From positions 29,252 through 93,251 of the forward strand of contig SVSI01000006.1 in the NCBI GenBank assembly GCA_015064385.1: a DNA stretch of 64,000 bases, written 5' to 3'. The stretch's first letter is position 1, and each line of letters opens with the position of its first letter. Origin of the DNA: Oscillospiraceae bacterium (GTDB taxonomy: Bacteria > Bacillota > Clostridia > Oscillospirales > CAG-272). The notes below the pieces were generated by a model that saw only the letters and a program-made list of their open reading frames with translations, had not been told where the DNA came from and ran no database searches. A program made the translations under genes and the position numbers. Below, one piece after another: positions 2,608 to 48,470 of this stretch.

Positions 2608-5600
2608 ATGAGCGTCACACTAAAAAAAGAAAAACGCATAATACCCACGTACGTTCCCGGCAAGGCGGAAGAGCTTCCCATGTTCTTCGAGAACCGTCCC
2701 TATCAGGGCGCTTCGGGAAAGGTATATCCCATTCCCTACTCCGACTCTGTTTCGGACGAAAAAAGTGACGTTAAATACGACGTATATACTCTTGAAAACG
2801 AGTATGTAAAGACTGACGTTCTTCCCGAAATCGGCGGAAAGATCCTTCGCGCATACGACAAGATCGGCTCCTACGATTTCATTTACTACAATGAGGTAAT
2901 AAAGCCCGCACTCGTCGGTCTTGCAGGTCCCTGGATCTCGGGCGGTATTGAGTTCAACTGGCCTCAGCACCACCGTCCCACGACCTATATGCCTCTCGAG
3001 GCAACCGTTGAAGACGACTCTGACGGAAGCCGTACCGTTTGGGTAGGCGAGGTTGAGCCGATGAACCGTCTCAAGGGTATGGCGGGAGTCACCGTATGCC
3101 CCGGACGCAGCTTTATCAAGGCAAAAATAAAGGTATATAACCGCACAAACGTGCCTCAGCTCTTTATGTGGTGGGCAAACCTTGCCGCTCCCGGAACAAA
3201 GGGCTACCGCACCATATTTCCGCCGGACGTTGAGTGGGTAAACGACCACGACCGCCGCGCGATCCTCTCGTGGCCTATCGCCAAGGGAATATACAAGACC
3301 GCACGTCCCTTTAACTACGGCGAGGGTACGGACATCTCCCGCTACGACGCGATAAAGGTCCCCTCCTCTTTCCTCGTTTCGCAGGGACAGTCCGATCTCG
3401 ATTTCGTTGGCGGATACGACGAAGACCTGAACAAGGGTCTGGTTACCGTTGCAGACCATCACATCTCCCCCGGAAAGAAGCTCTGGCACTGGGGTAAGGG
3501 TGATTTCGGTGATATGTGGTGTTCCAACCTTACCGACGAAAACGGCCCTTACGTTGAGCTTATGACCGGTGTTTACACCGACAACCAGCCCGACTTCACC
3601 TGGCTTGCTCCTTACGAGAGCCGCGAGTTCGAGCAGTACTGGTACCCCATCCGCGACATCGGTGACGTAAAGAACGCAACCATCGACGCGGCGATCAACG
3701 TTGAAAAGCGCGGAGACGACGTTTTCGTAGGTCTCAACGCTACCGGTACCTTTGAGAACGCAAAGGTCATCGTTAAAGACAAAAACGGTGAGATATTCAG
3801 CGAAACTATCACGATTTCTCCCGACAAGGCATATCTCAAAACTATTTCCGCAAAGGATATTGATATAAACGACGTCAGCGCTTCGCTCGTTTGCGAAAAC
3901 GGAAAGGTGCTCGTTTCCCATACTCCCTACATCCGCGGCAACAAGCAGCCCATCGAGGTAAGAAAGCCCGTAAAGCGTCCCTCGGAGATCGAGACCGTCG
4001 AGGAGCTTTACATCAACGGATACCATCTTGAGCAGTACAAGCAGCACAACTACCGCGCTCGCGACTACTATCTTGAAGGTCTTGCAAGAGACAACGGAGA
4101 TATCCGCTGTAACACCTCTATGGCACGTCTTTCCTACCGCGCAGGCGAATACGAAAAGTGCGTAGAGTACGCTGACAAGGCGATCGCCCGTCTGACCTCG
4201 AGAAACCAGCATCCTACCGACACCGAGGCGTTCTACTTAAAGGGACTCTCCCTTAAGGCACTCGGAAAGATATCCGAGGCGTACGATGCCCTCTTCAGAG
4301 CCGCTTGGAACTACTCGCACCGCGCGTGCGCTTATCTTGAGCTTGCGTCCATCGACTGTGCAGACGGAAAGTACGCAGACGCTCTTGAAAAGCTCGATAC
4401 CGTTATCTCGCTCGGCAAAAACAACTCTGTTGCAAACGGACTTAAGGCCGCTATACTCAGAAAGCTCGGTCAGAACGATGCTGCAAAAGAGGTGGCAAAG
4501 GCGGCACGTGCATATGATCCGCTCGACCTGCGCGCAATATTCGAGCTTTCTCACTACGAGAATATGACCGATACCATCGCATATTTCGCAGAAAAGCCCG
4601 AAAATATCCTCGACATCGTCATTGAGTATATATCCGAAGGTCTTTACGATGACGCGCTCTGTGCGCTCGGTTTTGCAGACGAAAGCTATCCTCTCACCTG
4701 CTACTACCGCGCATACCTTCTCTCGCTTATGGGTAAGGACAGTACAGACGAAATAAAGAAGGCAGAAGCGTGCCGTCTCGGATACTGCTTCCCCAACCGT
4801 CTCTCCGATATCGCCGCACTTGAGTACGCTATAAATTCTTGTGACAAGTCGGCAAATGCAAGCTACCTGCTCGGATGTCTCCTTTACGATAAGGAAAGAT
4901 ACGAGGACGCTATTTCCGCTTGGGAAAGATGCGTAGCTATCGACGAAAAACACGCAGAAGCATACCGTGCGCTCGCTCTTGCATACTTTGACAAGAGAGG
5001 AGATGCGGAAAGTGCAAAGATCAGTATGAAGAAGGCACTTGAGACTAAGAAGACCTCTCCGAGAATGCTTATGGAGTACGAGCAGCTTCTCAAGAACTCG
5101 AATGCATCGACCGACGAGCGTCTCGCACTTTACGACGCATATCCCGAGCTTTTGGCACAGCGCGACGACTGCTATCTCGACAAGGTTATCCTTCACACGC
5201 TTAAGGGCGAGTACAAGAAGGCAATAGATATGGCTGCCGCAAAGCGCTTCCATATTTACGAGGGCGGCGAGGGACGTCTCACCAAGCAGCACTCCTGGAT
5301 GTTCCTGCTCTACGCTCTTACCCTTGAAAACGAGGGCAAGATCGAAGAGGCAAAGGAATTCTTTAGACGCGCTACGATAGTTCCGAAGAGCTACGGAGAA
5401 GCAAAGACCTTCTTTAATCAGGAGGCACACGTCTTCTACTATCTCGGTCTTATGCTTGAAAAGCTCGGCGAAAAGGACGAAGCAATGAAAGCGTTCGAGG
5501 AGGCGTCGATATACAAGGCGGCTGTTTCCGAGCTTTCCGCATTCCGTGCGCTTGCTCTTAAGAAGCTTGGACGCACCTCCGAGGCGAACGAGGTAACTGC

Positions 5601-5898: not shown

Positions 5899-7155
5899 TT
5901 TTACTTTTTCTTGTCCGTGTCTATCTTTGTTACGCTGATCGTTATGTACTCTTGCGCTTGATGCACCGTCGGGAACGATATCTCCCGCCTTGGTGAGCGC
6001 GATCTTCGTGAGCATGGGTCCGATAAGCTCGTAGATGAGAACACCGAAAAGTACTATATTTCTTATAAGCACTCCGTCCGCACCGAGCGCCCCCTCTGCC
6101 TGAAGGGACATTCCGAGTGCAACGCCTGCCTGCGGAAGAAGAGTGACTCCGAGATATTTCTTGATCGTGGGACTTGAGCCGGCGATCATCGAGCTTCCGA
6201 ACGCACCGAAATATTTTCCCGCGGATCTGGCAAGAATATAGAGAACTCCCGCAATTATTACCGATACGCTTCCGAACACCGCAAAGTCAAGCTCCGCACC
6301 GCTGAGAACGAAGAACAGAATAAAGAGAGGTGCCGTCCATTTGTCCGCTCTCTCCATAAGCTCCTCGGAAAAATCGCAGAGGTTGCAGAATATCGTTCCG
6401 AGCATCATACAAACGAGAAGGGGCGAAAATCCGATATGAACGTCGCCGAACTCGAATTTAAGCATTGAGATCGCAACGGTGAGAAGAACGTACGTTATAG
6501 AGATAGAAAGACGCTTACTGTTAGATCTGTAAAACTTTTCGGTGAAGGTGAATATCCAGCCCATAACTGCGCCGAGAACAAGGGATGCAACGATCTCGAT
6601 AAGGGGATTTACCACTACCGAAATTACGTTTATCGCTCCTCCGCCCGCTACTGCCTTTGCAACACCGAACGAGACTGCGAAGATAACGAGTCCGACCGCG
6701 TCGTCAAGTGCAACTACAGGGAGAAGAAGATCGGTGAGCGGTCCCTTTGCCTTATACTGCTTTACGACCATAAGCGTTGCCGCAGGTGCGGTTGCAGACG
6801 CTATTGCGCCCAGAACTATCGCTACGGGAACAGAGATCCATCCGGTCGCAAGAGAAAAGGCGATAAGCACACCGTCCACCACTAAAGTAGTGATAACTGC
6901 CTGAAGGATTCCTATTATAGTTGCCTGTCTTCCCGTATGCTTTAGCTGAGAAAGACGGAATTCGTTTCCTATTGAGAATGCAATGAAGCCGAGTGCAACG
7001 TCCGATATTATTTTAAGAGCGTTAACTGCCTCTATCGAGGGAAATCCGAGTCCCTCAATGCCGAGACGGCCGAGACAAAATGGACCTATAATTATTCCTG
7101 CAACAAGATAAGCTGTAACTGCAGGTAATTTTAGTAGTTTTGCGGGACGCGACAT
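5896..7155 (-). CDS. Cation:proton antiporter (CPA2/Kef-type Na+/H+ exchanger family)
   Basis: 419-aa polytopic membrane ORF with the KLPAVTAYLVAGIIIGPF motif. The N-terminus looks truncated; a likely original start at 7222 is disrupted by a homopolymer frameshift (see findings). Confidence 0.8.
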   Translation of the reverse strand: MSRPAKLLKLPAVTAYLVAGIIIGPFCLGRLGIEGLGFPSIEAVNALKIISDVALGFIAFSIGNEFRLSQLKHTGRQATIIGILQAVITTLVVDGVLIAFSLATGWISVPVAIVLGAIASATAPAATLMVVKQYKAKGPLTDLLLPVVALDDAVGLVIFAVSFGVAKAVAGGGAINVISVVVNPLIEIVASLVLGAVMGWIFTFTEKFYRSNSKRLSISITYVLLTVAISMLKFEFGDVHIGFSPLLVCMMLGTIFCNLCDFSEELMERADKWTAPLFILFFVLSGAELDFAVFGSVSVIIAGVLYILARSAGKYFGAFGSSMIAGSSPTIKKYLGVTLLPQAGVALGMSLQAEGALGADGVLIRNIVLFGVLIYELIGPMLTKIALTKAGDIVPDGASSARVHNDQRNKDRHGQEKVK

Positions 7156-41715: not shown

Positions 41716-43401
41716 TTATTCGCCGAATTGGTTTCTTTCTCTTGCTTTAATAACAAGGAAAAGCGCTATACCCGAAAGTATCAGAACAATACCGGCTATC
41801 AAGAATACAACGAGAAGCGTGTTAGACTCTACTTTAGGGATCTCATTTCTCTCTGTGTGACCACATTCGGAGCATTCCCTAATTTTCATACCGGTCTCCT
41901 TTTTTGTTGCTTCCTTTTCGGTAGTCCATTCGCCGTAAACGTGTTCTCTTACCTTTCTTTCGTCACCGCAAACGTTACATTCCGTATCGCAGTCGTTATC
42001 GTAGGTGTGCGAGATTGCCTTAATTATCTCCTGTGCCTCGACCACCTCACCGCAAACGGTACATTTTTTACCGTCGGTAAGTCCGTCCTCGGTACACGTT
42101 GCGGCTTTGCCGTCAATTATTTCTTCAGTATGTGCTATCTTATCGATCACCTTCTGCTCAAGCGTGATCTGCTGGCAGACGGTGCATTTCTTTCCGTCGC
42201 TGAGGCCTTCCTCGGTACAGCTTGCCGCCTTTCCGGGAATGGTCTCTTCTGTATGAGCAACAGTCTCAACGACCTTTTGCTCTACGGTCATTTTTCCGCA
42301 AACAGAGCATTTCTTTCCTTCGGTAAGACCGGTCTCGGTGCAGGTCGCTTCCTTGGCGGCAACAACCTCTTCAATGTGATCTATCATCGGAATCGTGTCT
42401 TGCTTAACGGTAACAACGCCGCAAGTACGGCATTTCTTACCCGCGGTAAGACCGGTGGAGCTACAAGTAGCTTCCTTTGCGGAAAGAGTTTTTTCGTTGT
42501 GTCCCTTTGCGGGTACTACGTTTTGGGCAAGAGACGCATCGCATCTCGAGCAATGCCAGCCCTCTGTAAGGCCGGTCTCGGTGCAGGTCGCGGAAAGTGC
42601 CGCATCGACTATCTTATCGTGTCCCTTTGCAGGTACTACGTTCTGGGCAAGAGACGCATCACATCTCGAGCAATGCCAGCCCTCTGTAAGGCCGGTCTCG
42701 GTGCAGGTCGCTTCCTTTGCGTTTTCCACTATCTTATCGTGTCCCTTCGCGGGTACAACTTCTTGCTTAACGAGTATTTTCTCACACATCGAGCAATGCT
42801 TGCCTTCGGTAAGTCCCGTATCAAGACAAGACGGCTCTACCGCACTGTCAATGACCTCGGTATGCTTATGAGTAGCCCAATCTATGGATTTTATCTTCAG
42901 GGCGCTTCCCGTAATGGTAAAATCTTCCGATTCGTCGGGCATCATAGTATTCTTCTTGTTGGTCTCTACGGATACGTTAACTTCGCCTTCATAACCCGTA
43001 GCTGCCTTAAACTTAAGAACAACTACCGTGCCGCTCTTTGAATATACGGGAGGATTCTTTCCCATAGCCGTCATGGGATCGCCTACGGTAACCTTTACAA
43101 AGTTTTCGTTTGCACGCTTGTTGACGGTCACGTCATCCTCGGCAAACACACTTGTATCTTTAGAACATCCTTCGTAAGAAACCTGACTCGGATCAAAGGC
43201 AACGTTCACGATCGAAAGCACAAAACCCGAATTTTCAGAAAGAGAAACGGTAACATCAAAGGTCTCCCCCGCTCCCACGATGGAGTCTTTCGACTCCACC
43301 GTGTAAGCGATATTATTTCCACTTGCAAATACCGACAAAGAAAGACAGAACAACAATTGCACAATGAAAAGTATCAGTAAAAATCTTTTGCTTTTCATCA
43401 T
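41716..43401 (-). CDS. Membrane-anchored secreted protein: cohesin-like domain + ~7 His/Cys3 modules + C-terminal TM helix
   Basis: 561 aa with signal peptide. Cohesin-like sequence: [34 protein letters not shown]. Module example: [42 protein letters not shown] anchor: [33 protein letters not shown], 21 nt after the upstream gene. Confidence 0.75.
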
Positions 43402-43422: not shown

Positions 43423-46400
43423 TTAAGCTACGAGATCTTCCCAACCGAGATCAAGCATATCGTCGTAACCCTTGCTACCTACGATATATTCGCATATAGC
43501 TTTAAGGTCAGCTACGGTGATCTCTCCGTCCTTATCAACGTCAACGGTAACGTCATAGCTGGGCTCGATCTCGCCGGTTATGATCTTGCTGACCATAAGA
43601 GCGTCTGCCATATTTACGTCGCCGTCGTTATCAACGTCCATATACTTAACGATATCTATCGACTCGATCTCGCCTGCGCTACCGATAAGATCGCCTGCGT
43701 TGTTGCGCGCCTCGCAGTTAACGAAGCTGAACTCTGCGTTTATGATCTTAGTGTTGGTACCGTCATTGTTGTAGTTCTCGATCTCTGCATTATCAATGCG
43801 GAAGTAGAGCTCTACGAAAGCTTCGGAACCGTCAATGGTAACGTTCTGGGTTGCTTTATTCTCGTCGTTAGGAACACTTGCAAGAACGTTTACGACACCG
43901 TTCTTGGCGTGTGCCATAGGATTGGTGGTAAAGTTTGTGCTGATGAACTTAGCTTCAACGAAGGACATAACCTTTTCGTCGTAATCAAGTCCGAAGTTAA
44001 TACCCCAAACGTCAACTGCCTCTTCAAGAGACTCGATGGAGATCTTAACTACAACGATAGAGGAATCGGAATAGTCTGCGCCGCTTACGACAGCGTTGTC
44101 GATATCAAGAACGTACTTGATCTTGATCTCTTCAACAACTCTCTGTTCCGTTTCGCCGCAGATGATGCACTCGCGCTCTTCCATGATCTCGTTGTCATAC
44201 TCGTCAGAGGGGATCTCTATCCACTGACCCCAGGTATGGTCTGCAAGGTATTGGTCGTTTACGTTGGTAACCTTGCTCCACTCGCAGTTAACGCAAACTA
44301 CGAGGTCGTATCCGTATTCGTGACAAGTAGCGTCAACGTGGATAGGTCCTACGGTCTCGTGAGTATCGCCAACTTCTCCGCAGAGAATGTCATTACCGCT
44401 TGCATCCTTGCCTACAACAGCTACGCAGAAACGATCCTCAGTATCGCACTTGATCAGCTCGCCTGCCGCATTTTTGTGTCCGATTGCGGGAACCTCTTCC
44501 TGAGGAACGGTGAATACATCGCACACGCTACACTGCTTTCCGGCGGTAAGTCCGGTATTTTCGCAGTCGGGAGCAACTGCGGGTACGTCAACTTCAGTAT
44601 GTCCGAGGGCAGGAACATATCTGTTTATGTACTCGTAGTCGCAGTCAGGGCATTCCCAGTGCTGGTAACCGTATCCGAGACAGTCTGCTTCATCCCCGTC
44701 TGTAGCACCCATATATTTATGGTTGAGGGCGGATCTTACGGTTTTCTGCTCGTCGCCGCAAACCTTACAAATTCTATGGTTTTCATATCCTGCTTCTTCG
44801 CAAGTGGGGGCAAGGTTAAGGGGGTCCTGATCCTCGTAGTCATGCTCTGCTACGATCGTTGCGCCATCGTATTCGTCGTGAATTATGCCGCAAACACTGT
44901 TCTTACATACCCAAAGAGCTTTGGTTCCGTCAGTACCGGTCTTGCAGTCTGCGGGAACCTCTGCGGTCTTATCCCAGTCGTGATCAAGGTAGTAATCGAT
45001 GAGCTCGCCACACTTGGTGCACTTGAAAACACCCTTGGTGGTCTCGCCGTCGCCGCAAACAGTATCTTCAACCTCTCCGGTCTGATCATATTTTTCGTCG
45101 TCAATGTGTCCGTCACCGGTACCTTCAATAACGATGAGAACGTTCTTACCGCAGTCAGCACATTCGTGGCTATAGTAGCCGTTTAATGCGCAGCTTCCCT
45201 CACGGAAGATTTCCTTATTAGCGGTATTAAGGTTTACGTGATCCTTGAGGGCATCTTCAATGCTCATATAATACTTATCTTCTGTATCGACCTTGGGAAG
45301 CTCGTCCTTTTTGCCCATTGCTCCGCAGTTGTCGCACTTGGTTTCGGTGTATCCGCCTGCAATACAGTTGGGGGCAACTACTACTCCGGTCTCGAGATAG
45401 TTGTGTCCGAGAGCTTTCTTTTCGGTGGTCTGATCCTCGGTCACGTCACAACGGGAGCACTTAACGGTAATGACCTCGTCGTTTTCGCAATCCTGAGGAG
45501 TCTTGATCGTAACGTTTGCCGCGATCGAAGCATCAAAATCATGTCCAAGAGGATCTATGACAACAAGAGCTTCGTGCTCGTTACAGTCCACGCAGAAACC
45601 GATCGCGTTACCGGGTTCCGTGCAGGTAGGTGCATTTACTTTTCCGCTAATTATGTTATGGTTGTTTTTGTCATAAGAACTTCCAACCTCGCACTTTATA
45701 AGCTTAACGCTTGCGCCGTTAACGGTAACGTCGTAAGAAACCCCGTCCTTTACATACTCGGACTTAGCACCAAGAGGACAGTTATCGTCAGAGCAGTAAA
45801 CGAAGGTATATCCGTATTTCGAGCAGGTAGGATCAACAGTTACGGAAACCTCGGTGTGTCCGGTTGCGAGAAGAACTTCCTCGCGAGCAGCACCACAATC
45901 GCCGCAGTTCCAGGTTACAAGACCGTTAGTGGTGCAGTTTGCATCCTGCTTTACAACGTTTTTGCTCTTTGCGTTACGCGCCTTTTCGGCATCACTTGCA
46001 TCGTCGCTGCTCGTCCAGTTGGTATGGCCGAGAGGAGCAACGGGGTTGGTCTGCTTTACGTGTCCGCAAACGGTACAAGCATAAACGTCAAAACCCCAAG
46101 CGGTACAGGTGGGAGCGATAGTGACCGGTTTATCGTCCTCAAAGGAATGTCCGGTGGGTTCAACGGTAACCTGAACCTTTTCTCCGCAACGTCCGCACTT
46201 TACCTTTTTCCAGCCCTCTCCGGTACAGGTGGAGGGGAATTCTTCTACAACTTCAATGTTGCTACCCTCGGTAACGTGTCCGAGAGCTTCAACGGTAATA
46301 ATATAATTGCCGTTCTCATCCTTTGCAACCTCTACGGTTGCGTTTACGTCTGCATAGTAGTTTTCGCAGTCAGCACAGCTCCAGTAAGCGATCTTGCCGG

Positions 46401-47091
46401 CGGTGGTGCAGGTAGCTTCTACCGCCTTGTGCTCGGTAAGACCGTGTATGTGCATACACTCGGGAAGGATGGTAACGTTCTTGGTCGCGCCGCATTTTTT
46501 GCACGCGTAAACTGCAATTCCGGGCTCACCGGTAACGAAATCGGGCTCTTTGTCAATCTTAACGGGGCTATCGGACCAGGTATGTCCCTGTCCTTTAAGT
46601 TCCTCTTCAACGTTATAGTCGCATCTCGAGCAGGTAGTGATCTTTACGCCGCCTTCTTCGCAGTCATAATCTTCGTTGACCTGGTAGTCGTGATCGAGCG
46701 CAGGAATATCACTTCCGTCGTTTTCGGGATCAACTTTATTACAGATCGAGCAAACTATCAGCGCTTTTTGACCTTTTTCGGTACAAGTAGCCGGTTTTGC
46801 CTCTTCTTTGGTTTCCCAATCGTGGCTTCCCTCTATTTTGTTGAAATTAGCAGCAAAATAGTCGTCACAGTCGGGACACTGATAAAGGGTGTAGCCGTAT
46901 TCGCCGCATACGCTGGGTACGACCTCCACCTTCATTTTCTCGATCTCAGCTTCAGTGAAGAGACCAAGAGTGTGTTCTTCGCCCTGTCCGGGGCAATTCG
47001 TCTCACCTGCTTCTGCAGCAAGCACCGACATCGGCAGAACAGAAGCGATCATAAGACATGCGAGAAAAATAGCTAAAATTCTCTTCTTCAT
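43423..47091 (-). CDS. Large secreted protein: ~20 His/Cys3 modules + cohesin-like domain + C-terminal dockerin
   Basis: 1222 aa with signal peptide MKKRILAIFLACLMIASVLPMSVLA. Modules include PTCTAWGFDVYACTVCG and STCTGEGWKKVKCGRCG. The C-terminal duplicated Ca-binding loops DVDNDGDVNMAD and DVDKDGEITVAD match dockerin type. Confidence 0.75.
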   Translation of the reverse strand: MKKRILAIFLACLMIASVLPMSVLAAEAGETNCPGQGEEHTLGLFTEAEIEKMKVEVVPSVCGEYGYTLYQCPDCDDYFAANFNKIEGSHDWETKEEAKPATCTEKGQKALIVCSICNKVDPENDGSDIPALDHDYQVNEDYDCEEGGVKITTCSRCDYNVEEELKGQGHTWSDSPVKIDKEPDFVTGEPGIAVYACKKCGATKNVTILPECMHIHGLTEHKAVEATCTTAGKIAYWSCADCENYYADVNATVEVAKDENGNYIITVEALGHVTEGSNIEVVEEFPSTCTGEGWKKVKCGRCGEKVQVTVEPTGHSFEDDKPVTIAPTCTAWGFDVYACTVCGHVKQTNPVAPLGHTNWTSSDDASDAEKARNAKSKNVVKQDANCTTNGLVTWNCGDCGAAREEVLLATGHTEVSVTVDPTCSKYGYTFVYCSDDNCPLGAKSEYVKDGVSYDVTVNGASVKLIKCEVGSSYDKNNHNIISGKVNAPTCTEPGNAIGFCVDCNEHEALVVIDPLGHDFDASIAANVTIKTPQDCENDEVITVKCSRCDVTEDQTTEKKALGHNYLETGVVVAPNCIAGGYTETKCDNCGAMGKKDELPKVDTEDKYYMSIEDALKDHVNLNTANKEIFREGSCALNGYYSHECADCGKNVLIVIEGTGDGHIDDEKYDQTGEVEDTVCGDGETTKGVFKCTKCGELIDYYLDHDWDKTAEVPADCKTGTDGTKALWVCKNSVCGIIHDEYDGATIVAEHDYEDQDPLNLAPTCEEAGYENHRICKVCGDEQKTVRSALNHKYMGATDGDEADCLGYGYQHWECPDCDYEYINRYVPALGHTEVDVPAVAPDCENTGLTAGKQCSVCDVFTVPQEEVPAIGHKNAAGELIKCDTEDRFCVAVVGKDASGNDILCGEVGDTHETVGPIHVDATCHEYGYDLVVCVNCEWSKVTNVNDQYLADHTWGQWIEIPSDEYDNEIMEERECIICGETEQRVVEEIKIKYVLDIDNAVVSGADYSDSSIVVVKISIESLEEAVDVWGINFGLDYDEKVMSFVEAKFISTNFTTNPMAHAKNGVVNVLASVPNDENKATQNVTIDGSEAFVELYFRIDNAEIENYNNDGTNTKIINAEFSFVNCEARNNAGDLIGSAGEIESIDIVKYMDVDNDGDVNMADALMVSKIITGEIEPSYDVTVDVDKDGEITVADLKAICEYIVGSKGYDDMLDLGWEDLVA

Positions 47092-47236
47092 TGTTTTTTT
47101 CCTTTCATTATTAAATATTGTAATTTCCTGAGTTGTTTTTCAAACGCAGCTACGGTGGCCGTATTCTTTTTGACTTTTTTTTGAGCATTTCCATCTAAAC
47201 CTTCCCTCTCTTATATAATCAACCGTGAGAAAATTA

Positions 47237-47258
47237 CCACATAATCGATATTATGTGG
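47237..47258. repeat. Left inverted repeat (IRL) / putative recombinase core site
   Basis: CCACATAA-TCGATA-TTATGTGG. This is the exact reverse complement of the site at 47511-47532. Confidence 0.85.
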
Positions 47259-47510
47259 TAGAAACGGCAGGCAATGAAGAATACGACCGCTTTTACAAAC
47301 AAAAAAGGCATAACGACAAAACCAATGAAAAAAGGGGAACTGCTCATTGGTTTTTTAGTCATGCTCAAATTAAAGTAAATTTTATGTGTTTGTGGGTTTT
47401 ATGTGAAGATTTGCCAAAAAATATGTTTTTTCACTACATATATCTGTATTATTTTTTTCAAAAAGGTATTGACAAAACACAATTTATAGTGTATAATCCA
47501 TAGTGAGTTT
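47259..47510. other. Putative invertible DNA segment (252 bp, AT-rich) carrying a consensus promoter
   Basis: Bounded by exact 22-bp inverted repeats, contains TTGACA-17-TATAAT, and is adjacent to a tyrosine recombinase gene. The 92-aa ORF inside (47225-47503) has no SD and is low-complexity. Confidence 0.6.
47469..47497 (+). promoter_or_regulatory. Consensus sigma-A promoter inside the invertible segment (currently pointing away from the surface-protein operon)
   Basis: TTGACA (47469-47474), exactly 17 nt, TATAAT (47492-47497). Confidence 0.65.
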
Positions 47511-47532
47511 CCACATAATATCGATTATGTGG
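47511..47532. repeat. Right inverted repeat (IRR) / putative recombinase core site
   Basis: CCACATAA-TATCGA-TTATGTGG. It abuts the recombinase stop codon (47533-47535). Confidence 0.85.
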
Positions 47533-48372
47533 TTAACACCTCAAAAGCCCGAGCTTTTGTATCTGTTTGCGGTGTATTTCTCCGCTTTCAACGGTATATA
47601 TGCGGGTGGTATTAACACTTGAATGACCAAGGATATCGGCTAAACGCACGATATCCTTTTGTATTGTATAATAGGTTCGTGCAAAAAGGTGCCTGAGATT
47701 ATGCGGAAACACCTTCTTTTCGGAGACGTTCGCCTTTTTGCAGAGCTTTTTCATCTCACTCCATATATTCGATCTATCGAGCGCTTTTCCGTTTTTGGTA
47801 ACAAAAACGGATCCGCTCGTTATTTTTTGCTCTTTCAGATATCTTTTCAGGATCACGCAAAGCTGATTGGGCAAAAACACCGTCCGCCTCTTGCCCTTAC
47901 ATCTTATCTCTGCGCGCTTTGATTCTATTGAGGAGACCGTTATATACTTAAGCTCTGAAACCCGTATTCCGGTAGAACAGATCGTCTGCATAACGAAATA
48001 AATACGCTTGTTTTTAGAGTGCTCCGCTACGCTGAGAAGTCTTTCATATTCGGACTTTGTAAGCTCCTTTTCGCTCGTTGAAAACATTTGTCTTTGTACT
48101 TTCACCGTCTTTATTTTCAGATCGTACCATCCGTTAAAGCTAAAAAAGCTGTTCAGTGAAGATATTATGGAATTAACGCTGGCACAAGAATATTCCGAAA
48201 TAATCTTTTCTTTATATTTCAGCACCGTGTCCTTGGTCAGGCAAGCGTCCGGTATCCACAAGCAAAATTCACGCAGATCGCGAAAATATTTTTCAAGTGT
48301 TGCAGGAGATTTTTCTTCATTGATCAGATGTCTCTTATAGTCGGCTATAATTTTGTCTGTGATTCTTTTCAT
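47533..48372 (-). CDS. Tyrosine site-specific recombinase (XerC/D-like, candidate invertase)
   Basis: 279 aa. Catalytic pattern: STGIRVSEL (Arg), KGKRR (Lys), HNLRHLFA (HxxR), GHSSVNTTRIY (His...Tyr). The gene is visibly more AT-rich than its neighbours. Confidence 0.85.
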   Translation of the reverse strand: MKRITDKIIADYKRHLINEEKSPATLEKYFRDLREFCLWIPDACLTKDTVLKYKEKIISEYSCASVNSIISSLNSFFSFNGWYDLKIKTVKVQRQMFSTSEKELTKSEYERLLSVAEHSKNKRIYFVMQTICSTGIRVSELKYITVSSIESKRAEIRCKGKRRTVFLPNQLCVILKRYLKEQKITSGSVFVTKNGKALDRSNIWSEMKKLCKKANVSEKKVFPHNLRHLFARTYYTIQKDIVRLADILGHSSVNTTRIYTVESGEIHRKQIQKLGLLRC

Positions 48373-48470
48373 TTTTTATCCTTTCTTTTTTACTGTCCTT
48401 TTTTATACATTCTGAAAACGGCAGGCATATATTAACAGAATTATAAAAACTATCCTGTAAAAAAACAAAA

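Follow-up and report, generated by a model that had tools for sequence, protein, structure and literature searches.

A probable promoter inversion switch between an Xer-like recombinase gene and a dockerin operon in an Oscillospiraceae bacterium

Sites, promoter and recombinase gene at the locus

The window analysed here is a 64-kb stretch of DNA (64,000 nucleotides) from an Oscillospiraceae bacterium (assembly GCA_015064385.1, contig SVSI01000006.1). At positions 47236-47533 it carries a short AT-rich segment enclosed by two inverted sites, which lies between a tyrosine recombinase gene and an operon encoding a secreted dockerin protein and a membrane-anchored protein, all three genes being on the minus strand. 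A preliminary description of this stretch had read the segment as an invertible promoter for the surface-protein operon. We conclude that 47236-47533 is very probably a promoter inversion switch (inverton) of a Clostridia-wide family, and we infer that it is operated by the adjacent Xer-like recombinase of 279 amino acids (aa). Throughout, ON denotes the orientation in which the switch promoter faces the operon, hereafter the cargo, and OFF the one in which it faces the recombinase gene. The core elements, in the order of their coordinates, are:

47236-47258, no strand: cargo-side inverted repeat (IRL), (A)CCACATAAT-CGAT-ATTATGTGG, two 9-bp inverted arms around an asymmetric centre
47259-47510, no strand: putative invertible segment between both sites, 252 bp, AT-rich, 29.8% G+C
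47469-47497, plus strand: switch promoter TTGACA-17-TATAAT, sigma-70-type, outward-facing, 12/12 match
47511-47533, no strand: recombinase-side inverted repeat (IRR), CCACATAAT-ATCG-ATTATGTGG(T), with a centre reverse-complementary to that of IRL
47533-48372, minus strand: tyrosine recombinase, Xer-like, presumed invertase, 279 aa, with PF00589 (E 3.7e-29) and PF02899
Junction sequence predicted for the flipped orientation: ...GAGAAAATTA-IR-AAACTCACTATGG

A repeat search returned a 23-nt inverted repeat with 100% complementarity (47236-47258 and 47511-47533) and 252 nt between its arms, which upholds the exact repeats around 252 bp first described but makes each of them one base longer than the 22 bp given then. 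IRR shares 1 nt with the TAA stop codon of the recombinase gene. With up to two mismatches allowed, the pattern CACATAATNNNNATTATGTG has exactly two matches in the window, against 0.01 expected from 100 dinucleotide shuffles, none of which contained two or more. The consensus CCACATAAT-N4-ATTATGTGG is common to about 70 related loci, and family-wide the sites are best described as 9-bp arms around a variable 4-nt centre; the 8 + 6 + 8 architecture proposed earlier is equivalent to this, the outer bases of its core being fixed as T...A. The arms (...CATAA / TTATG...; ATAA/TTAT) resemble those of dif-type Xer sites.

The switch promoter is the sole 12/12 match in the region in a scan that scored matches to the sigma-70 consensus TTGACA-17-TATAAT out of 12 positions, and its -10 hexamer ends 13 nt short of IRR, exactly as the preliminary description had it. 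As sequenced, it is directed into the recombinase gene at its 3' end, with the dockerin operon OFF, again as stated at the outset. Calculated for the inverted segment, the promoter would lie at 47272-47300 on the minus strand; this placement, and the leader of ~175 nt that goes with it, had already been worked out correctly. The segment also holds an 82-aa open reading frame (ORF), whose product is identical in both orientations.

The recombinase has a Phage_integrase domain and a SAM-like N-terminal domain, and when it is aligned with 19 homologues (67-78% identity), none of the six residues R136, K160, H223, R226, H249 and Y258 varies, which confirms the catalytic pattern noticed earlier. 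Its best NCBIfam models are XerA (148.3 bits, cut-off 220) and XerD (121.3, cut-off 329.6), followed by XerC (112.1, cut-off 335) and XerS (72.7, cut-off 267), so that all Xer equivalog cut-offs (220-335 bits) are missed. An assignment as a XerC/XerD/XerS dimer resolvase was rejected on these scores and on the arrangement, two inverted sites around a promoter and not a single dif. The scores against FimB/FimE-type invertase models lie far below their cut-offs (PRK09870, 33.5 versus 221; PRK09871, 18.3 versus 222), and a FimB/FimE-type invertase was likewise rejected. Only tyrosine-recombinase domains were found in the protein, and no resolvase-type domain of the serine invertases Hin, Gin and Mpi; within the window, there is no other recombinase-like match to it.

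Both orientations occur in a Clostridia-wide family

Scanning 185,579 species-representative genomes (one per GTDB species) with a sequence pattern and tblastn, we found at least 588 tblastn-confirmed loci that encode relatives of the recombinase. Their hosts are Oscillospiraceae, 'Clostridia', Eubacteriales, Lachnospiraceae and related metagenome-assembled genomes (MAGs), and some genomes have two or three copies. The shared layout consists of the recombinase gene, a CCACATAAT-N4-ATTATGTGG site, a promoter segment of ~200-310 bp, a second site and a co-oriented cargo gene. The family figures that follow rest on the loci kept, namely 80 loci, 64 non-redundant segments and, for the palindrome count, 58 oriented segments. 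In the 80 loci, the first site lies 0-30 nt past the recombinase stop codon (a few overlap the stop), and the second ~210-350 nt further.

In 50/50 loci with exactly two sites, to which this count was limited, the two N4 are exact reverse complements of each other. Across the two-site loci there are 33 different N4, whereas the 9-bp arms are conserved. Conserved arms around a centre that is free to vary but matched within each pair point to recombinase-binding arms around a crossover region, and the opposite orientation of the centres predicts inversion. Inversion had been predicted before from the opposite cores of the two sites in the window, and it is supported both by this matching and by the two genome pairs described below.

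A promoter match of at least 11/12 is present in 50 of the 64 family segments, versus 2.7% of shuffled segments, and a perfect 12/12 match in 21 of them, versus 0.1% of shuffled ones. The promoter always lies near one end of the segment and fires outward, with its -10 hexamer mostly ~13-50 nt from the repeat. It points toward the recombinase in 43 segments and away from it in 15, with 6 ambiguous, i.e. 74% of the determinable family loci are OFF.

Two variants of this arrangement were seen among the relatives. About twelve of them (L013, L018, L019, L040, L045, L048, L051, L060, L068, L069, L072 and L084) carry a third recombinase-type site with the same centre, mostly 32-33 nt outside one of the two main sites. 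The extra site, of which the window shows no example, might serve either as an alternative position for crossover or for accessory binding. One of these loci, L068 (sites at ~3935 and ~4187, three sites in all), has 12/12 promoters at both ends of the segment, facing outward, and may be a toggle between two outputs and not an ON/OFF switch.

Past the second site, a co-oriented ORF of at least 60 aa, started by ATG and beginning within 700 nt, is found in 60 of the 64 non-redundant loci. Among these 60 cargo genes there are 12 of TetR type, 5 YpsA/SLOG, 3 BspA-type leucine-rich repeat, 3 SPFH, 2 GGDEF/EAL, 2 cohesin and 2 dockerin proteins; SLH, collagen-repeat, acyltransferase and TIR effector proteins are also met in the family. 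Cargo of this kind is typically phase-varied.

Two natural pairs of genomes differ by inversion of the segment. In the first pair (L062 and L065, two MAGs), the flanks are collinear at 97-99% identity, and the 301-nt piece from repeat to repeat is inverted at 99.7%. The second pair, L089 (GCA_045605765.1) and L090 (SRR30535870), whose recombinases are 77-78% identical to that of the window, has collinear flanks (93-95% identical) and a 298-nt piece inverted at 95%. L089 is ON, with a 12/12 promoter toward the dockerin gene, and L090 is OFF, with its promoter toward the recombinase. L089 has the synteny of the window (hexapeptide transferase, glmM, glmS, recombinase, switch and a 1210-aa dockerin protein); the L090 contig is shorter and holds the recombinase, the switch and a downstream gene. 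Aligned with L089, the window element 47236-47533 is reversed (77.8% over 302 nt) between two forward flanks, while the window and L090 are collinear throughout. Hence both orientations exist at the orthologous locus, as they do elsewhere in the family. In a third relative (L091, 70% identity), the switch stands before a protein with S8 peptidase and dockerin domains.

The same motif is found in a published survey of the hCom2 defined human-gut community with PhaseFinderDC (Microbiome 2025;13:71, PMC11892184; bioRxiv 10.1101/2024.06.01.596983). There, 17 strains together carry the 33 members of 'inverton group 139', of which 32 are clostridial, and of all inverton groups this one shows the most significant association with a tyrosine recombinase group encoded nearby, 'group 35' (PMC11892184). 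Repeats given for its members are ACATAATGATGATTATGTGGTAA ... TTACCACATAATCATCATTATGT and ACAACATAATATTAGTTATGTTGTA (bioRxiv 10.1101/2024.06.01.596983, supplementary files 15 and 16), which contain ACATAAT-N4-ATTATGTGG or CAACATAAT-N4-GTTATGTTG, the consensus of the window and of the 70 related loci. For Clostridium sp. D5, a single sample yielded 102 reads in forward and 254 in reverse orientation, and the ratio moved over passages (bioRxiv 10.1101/2024.06.01.596983). With such mixed-orientation reads in group 139, the family has already been shown by sequencing reads to flip. Group 139 and the window element are alike in repeat motif, in segment length (206-228 bp versus 252 bp), in a tyrosine recombinase within 5 kb and in Clostridia hosts. 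They differ in that the group is a statistical catalogue whose members come from human-gut isolates, with none of the listed ones linked to dockerin or cohesin proteins. No account of the site anatomy, the adjacency to the recombinase stop codon, the internal palindrome or the cargo range was found in the survey text and files that were available.

The dockerin operon, its leader and the internal palindrome

The remaining features of the locus are listed below, again in the order of their coordinates.

41716-43401, minus strand: cargo gene 2, 561 aa, 21 nt downstream of gene 1, with a signal peptide and a C-terminal transmembrane anchor
43423-47091, minus strand: cargo gene 1, secreted protein of 1222 aa (signal peptide; 14 or more CxxC...[GD]H modules; type I dockerin at the C-terminus)
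47092-47235, minus strand: fixed leader from IRL to the cargo start codon, 144 nt, collinear and conserved in L089 and L090
47114-47143, minus strand: fixed promoter-like site TTGAAA-18-AATATT, weak, 9/12 match
47150-47194, minus strand: leader ORF of 14 codons, MEMLKKKSKRIRPP-stop, ending IRPP-stop, with the Shine-Dalgarno-like GAGGGAAGG upstream
47318-47354, no strand: internal palindrome/stem-loop, AAAACCAATGA-N15-TCATTGGTTTT, a perfect 11-bp stem with A and T runs on either side
48440-48468, minus strand: candidate recombinase promoter TTGTTT-17-TATAAT, weak, 9/12 consensus match only, overlapping the tail of the glmS terminator

The dockerin of cargo gene 1 occupies residues 1150-1203, and an orthologue of this gene stands behind the switch in L089. 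Cargo gene 2 encodes, by its translation, a beta-rich N-terminal domain and ~8 Cys/His modules. The preliminary description had called the first a 1222-aa dockerin gene, which it is, and the second a cohesin gene, a label that finds no support in profile searches: no cohesin domain was matched in Pfam at E up to 10, in NCBIfam or in the PDB. A single-sequence AlphaFold (AF2) model of the gene 2 product has a predicted local distance difference test (pLDDT) score of 40 and is unusable. Both proteins are built of repeated modules of ~40 residues of the form ATCTxxGLTEGxxCxxCG...GH, for which Pfam, NCBIfam and the PDB gave no match.

The leader ORF, preceded by a strong Shine-Dalgarno sequence, is separated from the dockerin gene downstream by 50-60 nt and is conserved in three diverged lineages. 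It has counterparts of the same length and with the same IRPP-stop end in L089 (~6172-6216), L090 (~1660-1704) and L017 (~4175-4219), the last being a locus with a 64% identical recombinase and a homologous cargo. The peptides read MELHKRKTKRIRPP-stop in L089 and L090 and MTTYEEELSIIRPP-stop in L017. At their ends the codons vary synonymously (ATA/ATC; CGG/AGA/CGT; CCA/CCT/CCC; CCG/CCT/CCC; TAG/TAA), and such changes over I-R-P-P-stop indicate selection on the peptide. This conservation suggests that the leader ORF is a candidate ribosome-stalling regulatory peptide. A more precise assignment as a RAPP-like arrest peptide was rejected, as RPP-stop falls outside the published motif R-[AG]-P-[PG].

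Near the cargo start codon, the end of a contig from the same strain (L008, 2160-2191) folds back, following the minus strand to ~47104 and then the plus strand from 46972. The most likely cause is an artefact of the assembly or library; a second inversion breakpoint around the cargo start codon could also be the cause.

A hairpin inside the segment had been reported at 47321-47351; it exists, with 47318-47354 as its better coordinates, and its stem can be extended to 47308-47364. Folded as RNA, it reaches -19.6 kcal/mol on the plus strand and -21.5 on the minus strand (z about -4.9), and it has U-tracts on both strands. In the family, the palindrome takes the form AGACCAATG-N(9-18)-CATTGGTCT, i.e. 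AGACC(A/G)(A/G)T...A(T/C)(T/C)GGTCT, and spans ~33 bp. It is present in 39 of the 58 oriented segments (among L009-L088), commonly ~59 nt upstream of the -35 hexamer, with ~92 nt from its start to the start of the -35. One published group-139 inverton likewise carries an internal palindrome, AGGCCGG-N16-CCGGCCT (bioRxiv 10.1101/2024.06.01.596983).

Changes in the arms of the palindrome are symmetric (CCAAT/ATTGG, CCGAT/ATCGG, CCGGT/ACCGG, CTAAT/ATTAG). Counting pairs, we obtained 32 double-sided changes versus 9.9 in shuffles, a count that is partly circular because the loci had been preselected for perfect Watson-Crick stems, and that does not distinguish between an RNA hairpin and a symmetric DNA site. 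With U-tracts on both strands and a fold of about -20 kcal/mol, the palindrome of the window looks like a bidirectional terminator, and a canonical intrinsic terminator is plausible in this strain. Most family palindromes are without a clear U-tract, which leaves a protein-binding role equally open. The element probably either serves as a terminator/insulator in both directions or is bound by an accessory protein. As a terminator, it would block read-through from the recombinase gene into the cargo in either orientation.

Upstream of the recombinase gene lie glmS, glmM and the hexapeptide transferase gene. An exact 12-nt direct repeat, AAACGGCAGGCA, occurs just inside IRL (47262-47273) and upstream of the recombinase start codon (48416-48427). 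With ~0.2 chance matches per 2.5 kb by our own estimate, it is probably a chance match and was set aside as a meaningful element; the L089 switch sequence has no copy beside its first site. In the relative L075 (2998-4307), two recombinase-like frames stand in tandem, one full and the second partial at 71% identity, with the switch after the second, and may represent a duplication or a pseudogene.

Predicted working of the switch, alternatives and related systems

In the working model, recombinase dimers would bind both 22-bp dif-like sites CCACATAAT-N4-ATTATGTGG, the sites would synapse, and strands would be exchanged within the short asymmetric centre (CGAT versus ATCG), the opposite centres leading to inversion of the 252-bp segment. 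When OFF, the promoter would read antisense into the recombinase gene, and read-through from that gene would probably be stopped at the 47318-47354 stem-loop. Being convergent with the recombinase gene, the promoter may also lower recombinase expression and so stabilise the OFF state, a feedback that would be consistent with the OFF majority among determinable assemblies (74%). When ON, transcription from 47272-47300 on the minus strand would start ~6 nt before the repeat; the transcript would cross IRL, which would place an 11-bp hairpin at the RNA 5' end, run through the 144-nt leader with its 14-codon ORF and enter the genes for the 1222-aa dockerin protein and the membrane-anchored 561-aa protein. 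We infer catalysis by this recombinase, flipping in this strain and transcription that depends on orientation, together with the roles given to the palindrome and the leader ORF.

Several observations weigh against this model. The exact recombinase protein is found on 11 public contigs, and the 8 loci retrieved are all OFF with a 100% identical segment. A look-up of the exact dockerin protein gave 2 loci with the gene layout of L001, which is OFF, and one with the 82-aa ORF inside the segment gave 1 further contig, also OFF. Altogether, 11/11 independent metagenome contigs of this strain, from at least 10 samples, are OFF with a 100% identical segment, and no own-strain contig ends at the repeats, so that flipping in this strain is predicted and not seen, and the strain may flip rarely or be strongly biased. 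The strain occurs in the samples SRR7031455 and SRR7031456 (Logan/SRA), 3300032167, 3300029705, 3300018495, 3300024272, 3300018878, 3300018475 and 3300024268 (JGI) and ERZ27248436 (ENA). A search of a metagenome contig collection for the cargo-side junction, which is the same in both orientations, gave 0 matches and is uninformative, as the collection does not hold this strain. The link between recombinase and sites is drawn from their co-occurrence. On the cargo strand, IRL gives an 11-bp hairpin (-13 kcal/mol) with a U-rich stretch behind it, an arrangement that could attenuate ON-state transcripts. Finally, the promoter-like site at 47114-47143, for which inspection of the L089 leader gave no clear counterpart, could drive the operon, or its basal expression, independently of the switch.

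The uniform OFF state of the 11 identical contigs and the weak fixed site would both suit an element that inverts in the family but has become fixed OFF here, with any transcription of the operon due to a fixed promoter, 47114-47143 for example, and with the switch promoter making nothing but antisense RNA against the recombinase. We consider this unlikely. The repeats match at 23/23 positions, the recombinase ORF is unbroken and retains every catalytic residue, and the sister lineage shows both states; moreover, the own-strain data are assembled contigs, which report the majority orientation only, and a 74% OFF share among determinable family loci is what an OFF-biased switch would give. The sites might instead act as RNA hairpins, one behind the recombinase gene, for termination or stabilisation, and one within the cargo leader, with the promoter as a fixed antisense regulator of the recombinase. 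By RNA folding, each site is indeed a 9-11-bp palindrome at -11 to -13 kcal/mol, and IRL was flagged as terminator-like. Such hairpins leave the reverse-complement centres across 33 different N4 unexplained and are contradicted by the inverted segments between near-identical genomes and by the read-level flipping of the same motif, which makes this the least probable of the explanations considered.

Very improbable as well is a module for the integration or resolution of a mobile element, with the two sites serving as dif-like Xer sites, as att sites or, in a small transposable cassette, as terminal repeats. Such a module would accord with an Xer-like recombinase, with dif-like arms, with the several copies in some genomes and with base composition: the recombinase gene (40.4% G+C) and the segment (29.8%) lie below the window average of 46.9%, the cargo gene being at 49.1%. 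Against it, the sites are inverted and not direct, lie ~250 bp apart and enclose only a promoter and a palindrome; the scores fall well short of the XerC, XerD and XerS cut-offs; and the locus is syntenic, with the same cargo, between species whose recombinases are 77% identical. The low G+C is compatible with horizontal acquisition of the cassette, and a spread of the cassette between loci is compatible with an inverton and does not replace it.

More tentatively, and with appreciable doubt about the combination as a whole, the promoter inversion switch could be seen as a self-contained phase-variation cassette that can be placed before almost any gene. It would be made up of an Xer-like invertase, two dif-like sites, a strong promoter and the palindrome as a third conserved cis element, and would have spread across hundreds of Clostridia species before unrelated genes. 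The palindrome would then be more than a terminator: it would bind the recombinase, or else another factor, which would impose a direction on the inversion or link it to some signal. Here the cassette would be joined by a stalling leader layer, with ribosomes stalled by the IRPP-stop leader, and cohesin/dockerin-type display would be subject to phase variation as well as to translational gating.

The switch family is already catalogued and the present element belongs to a known kind; new here are the dockerin/Cys-module surface operon as cargo, an explicit model of the sites, the extent of the family, the internal palindrome and the IRPP-stop leader ORF. Cellulosome-type surface assemblies of dockerin and cohesin proteins are generally thought to be regulated by substrate sensing, and our search of the full-text literature found no paper connecting dockerin or cellulosome components with DNA inversion; a search by the strings CCACATAAT and ATTATGTGG returned primer coincidences only. 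If the operon is indeed under such a stochastic ON/OFF switch, rumen Oscillospiraceae would diversify their surface display within clonal populations, with a bearing on phage and host-immune evasion, on adhesion and on the cost of fibre degradation, and metagenome assemblies would show one of two expression states. The analysis also turns a catalogued repeat motif into a testable mechanistic model (arms, crossover centre, dedicated Xer-like invertase, palindrome) and displays the range of genes under such switches in gut Clostridia.

The fimS element of E. coli (314 bp; FimB/FimE) and the mrp element of Proteus mirabilis (~250 bp; MrpI) are short invertible promoter elements for surface structures. 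They share with the window element short inverted repeats, recombinase gene(s) immediately upstream and transcribed toward the switch, and an OFF-biased population, and their orientation can feed back on recombinase expression. They differ in that the window recombinase is Xer-like, that its sites are 22-bp dif-like palindromes, compared with 9-bp repeats with flanking half-sites, and that the host is a Gram-positive anaerobe whose cargo is a dockerin protein as opposed to fimbriae. The preliminary description had likened the logic of the switch to fimS, Bacteroides and C. difficile-type phase switches; the recombinase itself is Xer-like and not FimB/FimE-like.

The RecV switches of C. difficile (cwpV, flgB, cmrRST, pdcB) are likewise phase switches of a Clostridia tyrosine recombinase, with segments of 150-200 bp and inverted repeats of ~21 bp (PMC2784873, PMC5914908). 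Their cargo includes cell-wall or surface proteins and cyclic di-GMP enzymes, and GGDEF/EAL cargo also occurs in the family of the window switch. By layout they differ, RecV being distant from its several switches whereas the window family has one adjacent recombinase per switch; moreover, in cwpV and flgB the control comes after initiation of transcription, by way of a terminator or the leader, whereas the window switch would invert a promoter. With XerC/XerD, XerS and XerH and their dif sites, the window element shares the best profile matches and two inverted arms around a short centre. The family differs from Xer/dif in having inverted pairs of sites ~250 bp apart at hundreds of loci, several per genome, and in its outcome, inversion as opposed to dimer resolution.

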